From: Methanobacterium sp.
GTDB lineage: Archaea; Methanobacteriota; Methanobacteria; Methanobacteriales; Methanobacteriaceae
DNA: 41,464 nt
Reading direction: 5' to 3'
NCBI GenBank assembly: GCA_003166335.1
Contig: PMWA01000104.1
Location: 6,918-48,381 of the forward strand
The position numbers are program-made. Positions 36,001 through 41,464 of the stretch are shown piece by piece. Each line of letters begins with the position of its first letter. Position 1 is the first letter of the stretch.

Positions 36001-39000
36001 ATGAAATTACCTATGGCTCCTGAACCGAAAAGATTGCCTATGAAACCATTAGTAATATCCCCTAAGATTAATGTCCAAGCACCACATGCTACTAAAATTA
36101 AACCAAAACCTCGCATTAACTTATTATTCTTCCCCAATCCTATGAATAAAATTGCACCTATAATTAAATCTACTAATCCATAGCCTGCATCTGTGAGACA
36201 GAATCCAAAGAAGAAGGGGAATACTATAGCCATTAGAATAGTGGGATCAAATTCTCTGTAACTTGGAGGAGAATACATCTTCACGAACAATTCATAAGGT
36301 TTGGCAAAACTGGGGTTATCCAGATGGATTGGTATATCATCGTTTTCAATATCTGGATCAGAAACTTCAACCACCGAATTTCCTTCAGTAGATTTTTCAA
36401 TGATATCAAGCGCATTTTGCAGTTTTTTCTCGGTTACCCAACCTTCTAGCATAACTGTATTATTTGTTTCACCAAATGAAGTGAATATTTCACTACGTTG
36501 TTTCTCTATTTCTAGTTGCTCTTTGTAAGCTTTAAATTCAGGAAACCACTCGGTAGATATAACTGCTAAATCTTTTTTAATTAATTCTTTTTCTTGTTTT
36601 ATGGATTCAATGTGTGATTCTGATTCTGTTATAATGTCATTAGGCTTTCCAGACAATCCTGAAAATTCAAATTTTTCAAATTCAACTTTTCTCAATATAT
36701 TGGAAACTTCATCTTCAAGTTTCTTCAGAGAAATTAAAATGAGAATTTTAAAATCTTTTTCAACCGCATCATAATCGAAAATTACAATTTCATCGCTCCT
36801 TAAGTCTTTTAAATTGTCTTTAAATTTTATTAAAGCTTCATCACTTATTTTACCGAGGATAAATGATACGTTTTTTAATCCTTGTAAATCAGCTAGATTA
36901 ATGTCTATATTTATTAGATTTTCAGCTACTTTATGGGCATTTTTTAGTTTAGTTTTTTCGGAATCGAGGTTATTTAATTTTTTAGTGAGTGGATTCGTTT
37001 TTGATTCGACTTTTTCAATTAAATCTCCTACCTTATCTAAAACTTCTTCAACACTCAACTCTTTTATTTCTTTTTTTTCGGTGGGAGGAGGGTTTACAAT
37101 ACTTTTAATAAGGGACGGGATGCCGTTATTCCGCTCGCGTACAGATTTTAAGAAATCTGTAATGCTTGTTGTTTTCATTAGAAGAGAGGAAACTTTACCA
37201 AGATGAGGTGTGGCTCGCCCGGGTTTGAATATTTGTTTCCACTCTGCATCTTCTTGTATACGCTCGGATATATCTTGGATTTGTACTAAACTCGCTTCAT
37301 GTAGTGAACGCACTGCAGAATCGGTGTATTTATCCAAGGTTATTATACTGAGCTTCTTCATATTGGCTGGTCTGAACATGATGTTCACTTATAAAATCTT
37401 TTTTACTATAACTTCTGCACCGTCTTCAATTTTATCTGCGGCCTTTTTCTTCATTAGCTCTATTTTTTCAGCAGTTTTATTAGATATTTGATACGCTTCT
37501 TTTTGGACTTTAGTATCAGATTCGAATATTATTTTTTCAGCTTCAGTGTGTGCTTCGTCTTTTGTTTTCTCTATAATCATCTTTGATTTAGATTCAGCAT
37601 CTTGTATTAATTCAGAAGATTGCTTCTCAGTATCTTCAATTAATTTATCAGCGTCATTTTCAGCCTTTTTAATGGTTGTAATAGCTTCCGATATCGTTGT
37701 CATTTTATCACCATAATATTCGAAAATTTCTTGTATACTATATATATCTTTTACTATTTAATTTTCAATAATGATTAATCATTATAGTTATTATCGGTTT
37801 TCGGGCGATCTGAATCTCTTACTCAGAAATCTTTCATCAACACCATTATAGTAAATCTCGTCTATTCCAAAAAACTTTCTAAATGGAGGTTCTCTAGTTT
37901 TCTCCTCGTATATATGAGAAATTAAGCCTGGAAGTCTTCCTATCATAAAAATCCCGGCTCCTAATTGCCAATCAAATGCCATATCTGATAGAATTCCAGC
38001 ATTAGCACCATCTACATTCATCTTGATACCTTTTATATCAGAAATAATCTCTTGTATAGCGAGTGCTAGTTGGGTATGGATACCGCAAAAACCATATTTC
38101 TGGGCTATTTCTATGAGTTTAGGTGCTCTGGGATCTTCATTATGATAGCGATGGCCGAAACCAGGTATTTTACGATTATTCTGAACAAATTTATCAATCA
38201 GGACTTCCGCAATCTTTTTAACATCTTTAGGAGAATCTAAAGGTTCTGTGTATTCTTTAACTCCTTCCTGTAAAAGTTTCATACAATTCTCCAGAGCACC
38301 GGCATGATGTTCCCCAAAAGATAGAATACCTCCAGATACACAGTTATTCAAGGGAGATCCAGTGGAAGCCATTAGTCGCGCCACTTGGGTGCTGGGTGGG
38401 GTTACTCCGTGATCACAGAAGGATACTAAAATTGCTTCTAGCATCCTAGACTCTTTTTTGGATGGCAAATTGCCCGTTATTAATAAATAAATCATTTCGG
38501 GAAATGATAATGTTCCGATTAGATCCTCTAATGGGTAACCTCTAGTCGAGATCTTATTTGATTCTATTCTGGTTATGGAGGTTTTCCATTTAGTAGTCTT
38601 GAATTTAAGTAACTTTTCTACACTTTCTCTTCCAATCGCCATTTATAAATCACCACAAAACATCTGATTAAAGATTAAAAGATGATATTCTCGGTTCAAC
38701 ACAACAGCATGGTCTCATGCATAATATACGAACTCCACTGGCCCTTTGAGGCCCTATTTTTACAAGAGATCCAAGGGCAGTTACTGAACCACCTATACCC
38801 AGTGCTCCGATATCAGAATTGTTAATCGATTGAGTTATTTTATTTTCTATTTCGGATTGTTCCTTTAGGTTTTCATATATCATGGCTTTAAGCATCAGAG
38901 TAGTTGCTTCAAAATGGGTTCTACCAATACCCACAGCCGGTATACATGGAGTACAACCTAATTTTGGAAGTTCTAAGGTCATATAATTAACTACTTTTCC

Positions 39001-41464
39001 AAATACTTTCATATGATCTCGTTTATGAAAAACTCGATAAGTATTAGCTCTAATCTCGGGACCCCCACCCAACATGAGAATATGGATTCTAACTTCTTCT
39101 GGGTTTCCTTCCGGAGTCATTTCATCGATTAAGAATGATGGAGATATAACTTTACCGGGATCAATATATAAGCCCTTTTTTTGTTCAATTCTTCCAATTT
39201 CATCACCCTTAACCGCCATGGGTCTTCCGGGAAGCTCGTTTAAACCTTTCTTTATACCCTCTTTTATCTGCCTTATAAAGTTTACTGGTAAAAAAGCATT
39301 TCTTCCCATTTCCACTATAACGTGGGGTATACCCGTATCATCACAGAGAGGTAATTTATTTTTATGAGCTATACGAGCATTTTTTATTAAAAGTTCCAGA
39401 ATCCAGTAAGCTTGTTGGTTAGTTTCATTTTCCAATGCTTTCTGGTAGGCATATATTTGATCATCACGGAAAGTGGTGCTGGCCTCAATAACTGCTTCTT
39501 TAACTTTATTCACTAAATTCATTTTTTTTAATTACCATCCCATTTTAATTGTAAGAAATATATTTTTTTATTCTTAAAATTATCCCAAAATTATTTAAAT
39601 TTAATTAGTCTGGAAATTAATCATTTTATTTAGATTCATTCGGGTATTGCAAGATCCTTTACGCCTTTTTTAGAGGGTACTGCATCGGAATAGTAACGTT
39701 TTATCATACTTTTTACTAGATGAACTTGTCTAATCCGTTCTGATGCCTCTTTTTCAGTGGTTTCATATCCATGATGTTTTACTATGGCGCCTCCAGTTTT
39801 AAGATAAACCGGGGCAGTGACTCTTATAATCTCCGGAACTTCGTAATGTCTTATAAAACCTCCCGAAGATTTGGGATTTTCTGTATGAATATCAATAGAT
39901 ATATTTATAGCATTTCTTAGAGAAGCCATCATGTTTAACTGCAAATCTCTAACCGGGTTGAATGAATCAGCACCTATATTCTCTAACAACTTTGCAGAAG
40001 CTGGATTGCCATGACCTGTATGTGCGGAAATCTTAAAATGCATATTATCAGAGATTTCACCAGCGTCTCTCATTTTACCAAGAACCCAGAGTAATCCCTC
40101 ATCATAGACAACTATACCTCGAACTCCTAATTCTGCCGCTCTTTTCACATCCTCTAACGCATATAGAAGATTTTCATAACCTCTTAGACGATAACCTATT
40201 CTAGCTCCCTCCGAAGTTTGAGCGGAGGCACTAGTATCATAGGTAGCACGTGGTCCGACACTTAAAAAAAGCTCTATTTTATTATTTATAGCGATTTCTA
40301 CCATTTCTTCTATTTCAGAGTCAGTTAAAAGCATTATGCCTTTGGTTTGTGTCACTCGGTGCACTGTAACGTCATATTCCTCAGCTGCATCCAGTAGAGC
40401 TGCCATTGGTCCTGGTTTTTGAATTCCAGGCACTTCAAATCTGTACTGTGCACCATCAGGAAATCTCTTGATAGAATCTTCAAATTGATAATTACTTTTT
40501 TCAATTCCTATAGATTGGAGAAAATCTGGAGTCCGCATTTTCATCATTAACCCGTTTTATTAATCTTTTATTTATTATATATCTTCAAAATTAAGTTTTA
40601 TTCAAATTCATTTGTTATTATTTAATTGATTATTGAATGTCTTCATAAAGTCATTCATTTTATGTGATTCCAGGTTATCTATTCCTCTTAAGACTTCTAT
40701 TTTTATATTTGGATTCAAATCACTGAATTTTTTGATTATATCTGTTTTATTTAAGGGATTTTCAGGTTCACCGTAAGCTAAATCAATGGTTTTCTCGTAT
40801 GATCTACTTTTAGTGTTTATTGTAATAGTGGCAGGCCTTTTATCAGGATAAAGCAAATCAAAGTCTTCAGAATATTCTATAAATATCTTTTTAGATATTT
40901 CTTCAATTTCTTTACTGTTTTGATTTAAATTGAGATTATCTAATCTTAAATCTTTTTTTAAAACTGCAATAGCTAACGATACTGGTAAACTCTGTTTAAG
41001 AGCTTCAATGGTATAAGGATGATAATTATCATGTTCTGCAGCGATTTTATAAGTTTTTACAGTTATATCTAGAATTTCTTCTATTTCCAAATCTCGATTA
41101 TTTTCATTGATTATATGGAGCATAGCATCTATGCTGGAATGTAAATGTCTGCAAACAGGATAAATCTTAAAATAAATCTCTAAAATTTTAAATATATCCA
41201 TATCACATTTTATTTTTTTATAGTTGATATCAGCCATAGCATTCAAAAATCCTTCATCACCTTCCAATATAGTTTCAGCACCTGTAAATCCTCTTTGTGC
41301 CAGTAAAGCAGATAATACACCTGATTGAGCTGCTCTTCCAGTATGTAAATGTTTTCCCATAGATCCGCAGTGATCAGTTTCTAGAAGACCTGCTGCTTGT
41401 GTTCCAGCAAGTCCCAAAGCATTAATAATCTGATCCTTATCTAGATCCAGAGCTTTAGATGCAG

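Follow-up and report, generated by a model that had tools for sequence, protein, structure and literature searches.

A conserved gene cluster beside the A1Ao ATP synthase operon of Methanobacteria and its possible role in building the methanofuran tail

Results

The window analyzed here, a 41,464-nucleotide stretch of a Methanobacterium sp. contig, ends in four minus-strand open reading frames that sit immediately upstream of the A1Ao ATP synthase operon (Table 1), in agreement with an earlier note on this DNA that placed four co-oriented genes there. The gaps between them measure 25, 113 and 60 nt, another 87 nt separate them from the start of the ATP synthase operon, and the cluster is flanked by a tiaS-like gene and the ATP synthase. 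The order PrpD-like, U32-like, alpha, citryl-CoA-lyase-like (CCL-like) is kept in 40 of 42 loci, of which 22 were taken by similarity and 20 picked across genera; the exceptions are one contig end and one split genome. Conserved order says little in Methanobacteria, where synteny is the rule: 203 of 234 co-oriented neighbour pairs (87%) are adjacent in both the source genome and genome G001.

Table 1. Genes of the cluster, its flank and unlinked candidates (window positions unless a contig is named)
Feature	Position	Strand	Description
CCL-like gene	37791..38642	-	283 aa; citrate-synthase fold, short; predicted acyl-CoA + 2-oxoacid condensing enzyme
Divergent class I fumarase/tartrate dehydratase alpha subunit gene	38668..39522	-	284 aa; Fe-S hydro-lyase
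Cysteine-free U32-like TIM-barrel gene	39636..40547	-	303 aa; uncharacterised family; predicted second C-C forming/cleaving enzyme
MmgE/PrpD-family gene, 3' part	40608..41464	-	about 440 aa in full; predicted dehydratase or epimerase
First gene of the A1Ao ATP synthase operon	37389..37703	-	flank, outside the pathway
ATP-grasp ligase gene	25699..26832	+	PF02655, 117.5 bits; far side of the ATP synthase operon
Hydro-lyase beta subunit gene	G000:C60:20507-21016 (another contig)		behind mfnA; putative partner of the 38668..39522 alpha
MTH1747-type beta-hydroxyacid dehydrogenase gene	G000:C18:4834-5691		reductase candidate

The CCL-like protein had been described as nearer to citryl-CoA lyase than to citrate synthase, and our searches bear this out. 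It matches the solved citryl-CoA lyase 6hxp at E 1.9e-65, compared to E 6.8e-18 or worse for citrate synthases, and scores 396.1 bits on the citryl-CoA lyase subfamily model NF004866 (cut-off 245). It falls below the cut-offs of all si-citrate and 2-methylcitrate synthase equivalogs, the best being TIGR01800 with 106 against 421 bits, and is shorter than the full-length enzymes of these types (about 370-430 aa). Residues H78, H113, H164, R172, D211 and R236, which correspond to the His/His/His/Arg/Asp/Arg catalytic set of citrate synthases, are conserved in at least 95% of 39 orthologues. Citryl-CoA lyase is alike in length, fold and catalytic His/Arg/Asp set; the CCL-like protein differs in its linkage to the PrpD-like, U32-like and hydro-lyase genes and in its C-terminal basic motif, FR[K/R]F.

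The alpha subunit exceeds the cut-off of TIGR00722 (113.7 against 100.65) and stays below those of the fumarase equivalog NF004885 (117.8 against 276) and the TtdA equivalog (46.7 against 365 bits). The housekeeping fumarase alpha of the same genome, which belongs to a separate pair, reaches 389.8 bits on the fumarase equivalog and is 29% identical to the cluster alpha; the two are distinct, as had been claimed. Identity to the alpha of the bacterial cassettes described below is 48%, and the Fe-S cysteines C60, C190 and C273 are conserved in archaeal and bacterial copies. The beta subunit encoded on another contig is 50-52% identical to the cassette beta and its distribution matches that of the alpha, and from these sequence comparisons we predict that it is the partner subunit.

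In the source genome the beta gene lies 17 nt behind mfnA, whose identity is secured by TIGR03812 (569.6 against a cut-off of 299.4). The mfnA gene precedes beta, both on one strand, in all 30 best-scoring loci and in 13 of 20 genus-spread loci (43 of 50 together), the two being apart in the other 7, and in two deep lineages the reading frames overlap by 4 nt. Having a methanofuran gene as direct neighbour by chance would be a few-in-2400 event for one flank, by a rough and post hoc estimate. The link is nevertheless weak, since synteny is generally kept in these genomes, and MfnA may double as an aspartate decarboxylase.

For the U32-like protein we obtained the same values as before for the Peptidase_U32 profile (PF01136, 16.5 against a cut-off of 22.4 bits) and for the number of homologues (5691), and the predicted fold is again a TIM barrel (pLDDT 84.4, pTM 0.85). 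The top Foldseek match is Mk0906 (5d88, E 2e-7); by Z score Mk0906 (14.5, rmsd 3.3, 185 aligned) is about tied with CutC (15.6), YdjI (15.2) and class II aldolase and MfnB (14.9), and a profile comparison with a true U32 protein gave a weak match (probability 43%, 111 columns). The U32 hydroxylases carry a four-cysteine [4Fe-4S] site according to PMC6747719. The barrel is common to UbiU/UbiV, TrhP, RlhA and Mk0906, whereas the cluster site of these proteins has no equivalent in the U32-like protein: the source protein has no cysteine, 36 of 42 archaeal orthologue reading frames have none or one, and none is conserved in the family. As it has no cysteine, it cannot form such a site; of the label 'peptidase U32' the distant resemblance stands, and membership of the true Fe-S family does not. 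With three copies from the bacterial cassettes the protein shares 59-60% identity.

The PrpD-like gene (contig 47525-48806) starts at window position 41889 and runs past the window end, just beyond which an NN gap in the assembly splits it. Contigs of two public runs fill this gap with 52 letters and restore the frame, and a relative, L002, has an intact gene of 440 aa; for both reasons we rejected the possibility of a pseudogene. PF19305 and PF03972 are both over cut-off, which supports the MmgE/PrpD part of the earlier name 'PrpD (2-methylcitrate dehydratase)-like', but not the rest of it: the nearest solved relatives are B. subtilis IRG1 (7bra) and iminodisuccinate epimerase (2hp3), no 2-methylcitrate dehydratase chain is among the structure matches at E<=0.001, and the intact L002 copy misses the PrpD equivalogs NF006943 (41.9 against 575 bits) and NF042438 (33.6 against 950 bits). 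Fold, catalytic His and pocket Lys/His are shared with these two enzymes and with cis-aconitate decarboxylase, all of which lack the extra conserved Arg that the PrpD-like protein has in a C-R-H motif. The Tyr that serves as the second catalytic base of iminodisuccinate epimerase, acting with its His, aligns with Arg141, so that the His/Tyr pair is absent.

Among Methanobacteria the alpha gene is present in 216 of 230 genomes, namely in all 216 outside a Methanosphaera-like genus, g21, and in none of the 14 within it. The same holds for beta (129/141; 0/12 in g21), the PrpD-like gene (73/81; 0/8) and the U32-like gene (245/266; 0/20, plus one miss in a genome of 320 contigs), and the CCL-like gene is absent from 5 of 5 g21 genomes. 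The five genes are therefore missing together, from two separate loci; at the three g21 loci listed the first ATP synthase gene follows the tiaS-like gene and the four genes between are gone. A pseudomurein marker and the housekeeping fumarase are still present in this genus, as are mfnA, mfnB and genes resembling mfnD and mfnF, and since the genus has 2-4 mtaB copies it looks like a methyl-reducing genus that would need little CO2 reduction. Elsewhere, the U32-like gene was found in 0 of 40 Methanococci (Methanothermococcus phylum) and 0 of 121 Methanomicrobiales, and 201 Halobacteriota gave two short hits and no full-length match. The module is confined to CO2-reducing Methanobacteria, g21 excepted. 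Its loss in g21 is not specific, because 105 of 508 conserved genes (21%, from half of G001) are absent or weak in the g21 genome G240. By eye, genes for molybdopterin synthesis and CODH/ACS were also recognised among those that G240 lacks. The MTH1747-type dehydrogenase, chosen by eye from the absent or weak genes of this half-genome screen, has the same profile (81/91; 0/9 in g21; 0/40 and 0/151 in further sets). The ATP-grasp ligase of the window was considered as a ligase for the module and rejected, its distribution being unlike that of the cluster (present in 100 of 101 Methanobacteria, all 9 g21 genomes among them).

Relatives of the module occur in bacteria, and the five core slots are all filled in 56 of 61 bacterial loci with full flanks. 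These cassettes keep the relative order of the archaeal genes, with the slot of the CCL-like protein taken by a non-homologous CitE-like C-C lyase and a Ppd-like ThDP decarboxylase plus an aldo-keto reductase, or a 2-hydroxyacid dehydrogenase, alongside. Most lie in glycan loci with glycosyltransferase, flippase and DegT genes, and an ATP-grasp ligase, of which the archaeal cluster has none, is present in 40 of 61. In a quick tree this glycan-locus clade is sister to the archaeal genes (SH-aLRT 90). In gut and rumen bacteria the U32-like and alpha proteins have almost identical active-site residues, whereas the PrpD-like protein is 29% identical to its counterpart and its pocket residues are changed. 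At E<=1e-4 the source genome contains no homologue of the cassette ligases or C-C lyase, and the decarboxylase and reductase have distant hits only. Operons for sugar-acid catabolism contain more distant relatives of the U32-like protein.

Discussion

The four cluster genes and the beta gene behind mfnA probably work as a single module for the biosynthesis of a branched polycarboxylic acid. The fact that bacterial relatives exchange the CCL-like protein for an unrelated C-C lyase argues for a real acid-building module. The dedicated pathway proposed before, in which an acyl-CoA is condensed with a 2-oxoacid and the product is dehydrated or rehydrated, is well supported by the catalytic residues, the bacterial recurrence and the joint loss; its substrates are our inference.

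Methanofuran is the coenzyme by which CO2 enters methanogenesis. In Methanococcales and Methanosarcina its tail is of the glutamate type, and the methanofurans a and c of the Methanobacteria, the order to which the module is confined, end in a tetracarboxylate. The end of MFR-a is given as a tetracarboxylic acid in PMC6926001, and the Discussion of a 2021 paper calls the enzymes for the terminal moieties unidentified (PMC8141765). The known enzymes MfnA-F and the bacterial MyfA/MyfB build the core and the glutamates, so a module proposed for the terminal acid has no reference sequence to be compared with. The bolder claim of the earlier note, that the product is the (2-hydroxy)hexane-1,3,4,6-tetracarboxylate (HTCA) tail of methanofuran a/c, is the likeliest of the readings weighed here, and we regard the case for and against it as nearly balanced. 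The mfnA neighbourhood and the CO2-reducing distribution favour it, the latter only if Methanomicrobiales and Methanosphaera carry other tails. Against it stand a cluster whose gene content includes no ligase, reductase or carboxylase, the general synteny, and the near-identical active sites in glycan-locus bacteria, because of which the shared chemistry is not methanofuran-specific.

A route to the tail can be written as follows. The CCL-like protein would join 2-oxoglutarate with acetyl-CoA, or with a C5 acyl-CoA of the glutaryl type, possibly leaving the thioester intact; the PrpD-like protein would remove the new tertiary hydroxyl or set the stereocentre; the U32-like barrel would make a second C-C bond; the Fe-S alpha/beta hydro-lyase would remove or re-add water, which could give the 2-hydroxy form; and unlinked enzymes, among them perhaps the MTH1747-type dehydrogenase, would reduce the chain and attach the acid to the glutamyl amine. 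The balance 2-oxoglutarate + acetate + pyruvate - 2 H2O + 4[H] = C10H14O8 implies that two C-C bonds are formed, with two dehydrations and two reductions. Still more tentatively, the five genes and this dehydrogenase together could be the route, by way of a new C-C-forming, cysteine-free offshoot of U32, with a core exchanged with gut bacteria that use it for an acyl decoration of surface glycans.

If the tail reading is true, five or six genes would be named for the terminal moiety of methanofuran, and a genus without them should have a different tail. The methanogens that dominate in rumen and gut belong to the Methanobacteria, and a step peculiar to this order in the making of a central coenzyme would be relevant to methane mitigation. 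Should the reading be wrong, a set present in 216 of 216 genomes outside g21 and common to hundreds of bacterial loci still lacks an assigned function, and one of its enzyme families is uncharacterised.

That the module instead makes an acid decorating a cell-surface glycan or glycoprotein, unrelated to methanofuran, seems to us rather unlikely, although the bacterial cassettes probably have this role. The sister clade in glycan loci, with its frequent ATP-grasp ligase, and the active sites that the U32-like and alpha proteins have in common with it fit such a role. However, the methanobacterial genes lie outside glycan loci, their retention throughout the order outside g21 would suit a core cofactor better than a variable surface antigen, and g21 has the pseudomurein marker without the module; furthermore, the source genome has nothing that corresponds to the bacterial ligases and C-C lyase, the decarboxylase and reductase hits are distant, and the PrpD-like protein has diverged in its pocket. 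The product could also be another small molecule specific to Methanobacteria and tied to CO2 reduction, such as a solute, a metal chelator or a different cofactor appendage, with the mfnA neighbourhood an inherited accident. The distribution fits this equally, molybdopterin-synthesis and CODH/ACS genes being lost in G240 as well, and synteny is inherited; but we know of no other orphan polycarboxylate in the Methanobacteriales, and the rough estimate for an mfn neighbour by chance on one flank speaks against accident, leaving this explanation unlikely.

Repair or detoxification of stray acyl-CoAs or wrong-stereoisomer tricarboxylates, either 2-methylcitrate-like or recycling (S)-homocitrate/homoaconitate from coenzyme B synthesis, would account for a citrate-synthase-fold, PrpD-family and hydro-lyase set that mirrors PrpC-PrpD-Acn, for an epimerase among the nearest PrpD-like structures and for the sugar-acid operons of distant U32-like relatives. 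It is made quite improbable by the wide margins under the PrpC and PrpD equivalog cut-offs, by a locus with no methylisocitrate lyase gene, by the biosynthetic setting of the nearest bacterial clade, and by the absence of the genes from g21 and other methanogen orders, although coenzyme B synthesis is common to all methanogens. An ordinary oxidative TCA branch, with a citrate synthase, an aconitase substitute and a second fumarase, is what automatic annotation and profile matches would suggest. We consider it very improbable: the CCL-like protein is of the short lyase type and under all citrate synthase cut-offs, a separate housekeeping fumarase pair is present, and the U32-like gene and bacterial glycan context would be left unexplained. 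Class I methanogens, moreover, make 2-oxoglutarate via the reductive branch, according to PMC2686161.

Compared to the 2-methylcitrate cycle (PrpC, PrpD, AcnB/AcnD, PrpB), the module, as we read it, has the same inventory of a citrate-synthase fold, a PrpD-family protein, an Fe-S hydro-lyase and a TIM barrel, with no PrpB or aconitase gene between its tiaS-like and ATP synthase flanks. Its condensing enzyme is of the short citryl-CoA-lyase type, its hydro-lyase of the class I fumarase type rather than an aconitase, and its barrel U32-like rather than PrpB. The logic of condensing, dehydrating and rehydrating is common to both, and the context of the module points to synthesis.

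The gene module and its distribution

The five genes considered here, four of them clustered and the fifth coding for a second hydro-lyase beta subunit, are a real, intact and class-wide module. The stretch G000:C117:6918-48381 of the Methanobacterium genome studied (G000) has its relatives in the Methanobacteriaceae, and upstream of its A1Ao ATP synthase operon lie genes for PrpD-like, U32-like, fumarase-alpha-like and citryl-CoA-lyase-like (CCL-like) proteins, all on the minus strand. Repeat searches reproduced the database scores that the earlier note had reported for these proteins. 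An NN gap just beyond the window end interrupts the PrpD-like gene, yet contigs of two runs fill this gap with 52 letters that keep the reading frame and a whole copy of 440 aa is present in locus L002, which rules out a pseudogene in favor of an assembly gap. Both ends of the window are bordered by two-base N runs, of which the genome holds 131; as at least one of them stands for 52 absent bases, genes that are split here may be artefacts of the assembly.

Of 42 loci, 40 preserve the order of the four genes; the other two are L027, which meets a contig end, and that of genome G012, where the U32-like gene is at the usual site (L313), the other three are absent there and alpha is on another contig. 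Unrelated genes are interposed among the four in a few loci. By eye, a small nitroreductase-like gene immediately follows the CCL-like gene in L301-L304, L308 and L020, from gut-type lineages, and in none of the other listed loci. Contigs from four RNA-library runs span 26 to 30 of 30 bins, a coverage that cannot reveal transcription, strand or operon structure, and a promoter and terminator scan with bacterial-type models returned matches at chance level only.

Features discussed in the text and their locations
Feature	Location	Strand	Remarks
Second hydro-lyase beta subunit	G000:C60:20507-21016		
CCL-like paralogue	G000:C121:15366-16235 (L233:2367-3236)		289 aa with 58% identity and all catalytic residues kept; a solitary gene, roughly 5 kb away from that for the housekeeping fumarase alpha
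MTH1747-type beta-hydroxyacid dehydrogenase	G000:C18:4834-5691		
ATP-grasp ligase, MfnD-like Pfam family	window 25699-26832	+	usually 13-15 kb from the cluster, beyond the ATP synthase operon
Cas4-like nuclease	window 24809-25492	+	stand-alone; under the cas4 cut-off
mtaB (methanol methyltransferase)	G000:C53:12035-13414		full match
Two-base N runs	G000:C117:6916-6917, 48382-48383, 57896-57897		
Exceptional locus L313	G012:C117:12500-23020		
Enterobacter plasmid cluster	L322:6844-15807		
Short metagenome contig	L320:1806-3957		

In BLAST searches with proteins of a related bacterial gene set (the cassette), the second beta subunit shows 50-52% identity to the cassette proteins, and the housekeeping beta about 31%. 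The gene is 17 nt downstream of the methanofuran gene mfnA on the same strand in G000, and the two overlap by 4 nt in genomes G003 and G001. All 30 best-scoring loci have mfnA upstream of beta, as do 13 of 20 genus-spread loci (within 2.7 kb); in 7 of the 20 beta is apart from mfnA, and in the five of these 7 that were inspected it points away from a 2-oxoacid oxidoreductase operon, identified by eye. In L265, L266, L275, L276 and L283 (genera g3, g7 and g18), beta is no longer beside mfnA and is divergently oriented to an operon that by eye is of the 2-oxoacid:ferredoxin oxidoreductase / succinyl-CoA synthetase-like kind.

Within the Methanobacteria, 216 of 230 genomes carry alpha, 129 of 141 beta, 73 of 81 the PrpD-like gene and 245 of 266 the U32-like gene, counts that come from kin and are not independent trials. 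All absences of these four genes but one belong to a single genus, g21, where the CCL-like gene was also found in none of five genomes. A tiaS-like gene directly precedes the ATP synthase operon in the listed g21 loci and mfnA has no beta behind it in five of five, so both sites are cleared. The genus keeps mfnA, mfnB, mfnD-like and mfnF-like genes, fumarase and the pseudomurein marker. Judged by its gene content we read g21 as Methanosphaera-like; it has several mtaB copies, and G000 itself has one. Methanosphaera is described as lacking Eha in the accessible part of PMC2686161. Beyond the class, the U32-like profile matched none of 40 genomes of the Methanothermococcus phylum and none of 121 Methanomicrobiales, and gave two short matches only in 201 Halobacteriota. 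The special beta occurs at 55-60% in a Methanothermobacter MAG and in Methanobrevibacter intestini, and no more than a weak match to it is present in Methanothermococcus, Methanogenium cariaci and Methanospirillum purgamenti.

Two controls bear on how these patterns are to be read. Co-oriented neighbor pairs of G000 are still adjacent in G001 in 203 of 234 cases (99 of 104 for gaps below 60 nt), so gene order kept across the class carries little weight. Likewise, 105 of the 508 genes that have an orthologue in half of G001 (one outgroup genome) are absent or weak in the g21 genome G240, which makes loss in g21 alone a one-in-five event. From this list of 105 one oxidoreductase was chosen by eye, the MTH1747-type dehydrogenase (1i36 match, E 7.6e-68), whose presence mirrors that of the cluster: 81 of 91, none of the 9 in g21, and outside none of 40 and none of 151.

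Predicted chemistry and product

The 283-aa CCL-like protein exceeds the citryl-CoA lyase subfamily cut-off and misses all citrate synthase cut-offs, and its catalytic set is kept across 39 orthologues. The alpha subunit retains three cysteines at just 29% identity to the housekeeping alpha. Closest to the PrpD-like protein are B. subtilis IRG1 and iminodisuccinate epimerase; it has Arg at the position of the epimerase's Tyr and does not reach the PrpD equivalog cut-offs. The 303-aa U32-like protein is a TIM barrel with a weak U32 signal and roughly tied top structural matches. No single family stood out in fold searches with it, and an Atlas search returned unnamed or 'peptidase' clusters only. 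Its conserved polar residues include E38, D149, S174, R233 and K250. It contains no cysteine and therefore cannot be a UbiU/V-type Fe-S hydroxylase, as compared with the description in the accessible part of PMC6747719. The inventory comprises two probable C-C forming enzymes and two of the hydro-lyase type. The module works like a condense-dehydrate-rehydrate unit and belongs neither to the methylcitrate cycle nor to the fumarases or U32 hydroxylases.

The earlier note had guessed that the cluster builds 1,3,4,6-hexanetetracarboxylate (HTCA), the tail of methanofuran (MFR). By our own arithmetic HTCA, C10H14O8, equals 2-oxoglutarate plus acetate plus pyruvate, less two waters and with four hydrogens added. 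Labelling work by White in 1987 and by Eisenreich and Bacher in 1992 reportedly points to 2-oxoglutarate, two acetyl-CoA and CO2. On the HTCA skeleton, a hydroxyl at C4 and one at C2 each lie beta to a carboxylate, like those that these hydro-lyases remove, and MFR-c carries a 2-hydroxy group on its tail. A C5 acyl-CoA could be joined to 2-oxoglutarate, homocitryl-CoA could be extended and then carboxylated, or homoaconitate could gain a pyruvate unit; these three routes would fit, and sequence offers no choice among them. Reductases and an amide ligase must be encoded outside the cluster. The ATP-grasp gene of the window is ruled out as a cluster-specific ligase by its differing distribution, being present in 100 of 101 Methanobacteria, g21 included; we take it to be possibly a MyfA-like second-glutamate ligase.

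A role in the core pathway of pseudomurein is unlikely, as G240 lacks the cluster yet scores above the cut-off of the pseudomurein ATP-grasp marker; none of 40 genomes of the Methanothermococcus phylum passed that cut-off. The methanofuran tail is, tentatively and at slightly under an even chance, the best single explanation of the module. The accessible text of PMC8141765 states that MFR-a and MFR-c bear terminal residues, that the enzymes for these terminal moieties are unidentified and that MyfA attaches the second glutamate, and that of PMC6926001 has MFR-a terminating in a tetracarboxylic acid. As of 2011 MfnA alone had been assigned, according to the accessible part of PMC3087415, in which the terms tried led to no mention of the cluster. 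Class I methanogens have a reductive TCA branch (PMC2686161, accessible part), and the accessible parts of PMC11365854 and PMC5020050 held nothing on methanofuran tails by species. Searches for the cluster, including by locus tag, gave no paper on it among the titles listed (in one search 30 of 61, none of which dealt with methanogens), and no paper combined 'methanofuran' with 'hexanetetracarboxylic'; the literature covered was largely without subscription journals, and the result does not imply absence from print.

Relatives in bacteria

A relative is encoded in at least 582 of 602 candidate stretches, and the loci examined were the best 80 plus 3. Among the 61 of them with full flanks, 56 combine U32-like, PrpD-like, alpha and beta genes with a CitE-like C-C lyase (PF15617) and none has the CCL-like gene; a phosphonopyruvate-decarboxylase-like gene is found in 42, an aldo-keto reductase in 42, a D-2-hydroxyacid dehydrogenase in 16, decarboxylase and dehydrogenase together in only 1, and an ATP-grasp ligase in 40. 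Many of the cassette loci in this best 80 plus 3 also contain glycan genes. That an unrelated acyl-CoA lyase occupies the condensing slot in bacteria supports the chemistry of that slot. From the same counts, what the bacterial core makes is probably a 2-oxoacid, which is then either reduced or decarboxylated. A quick tree, made without bootstrap, places the Methanobacteria in a single clade (97) beside the bacterial cassette clade (99), with the two joined at 90; we claim no donor.

Context searches for intermediate members of the U32-like family gave nothing, one short contig or no usable pattern. More distant members are found in sugar-acid catabolic operons, and one on an Enterobacter plasmid (L322) is part of an apparent biosynthetic cluster with genes for a kinase, 2-hydroxyacid dehydrogenase, aminotransferase, iron redox enzyme, peptidase and exporter, contexts which suit an aldolase-like role. 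On a short metagenome contig (L320), a distant U32-like gene overlaps an asparagine-synthase-like gene and adjoins a gene that by eye is mitochondrial-carrier-like.
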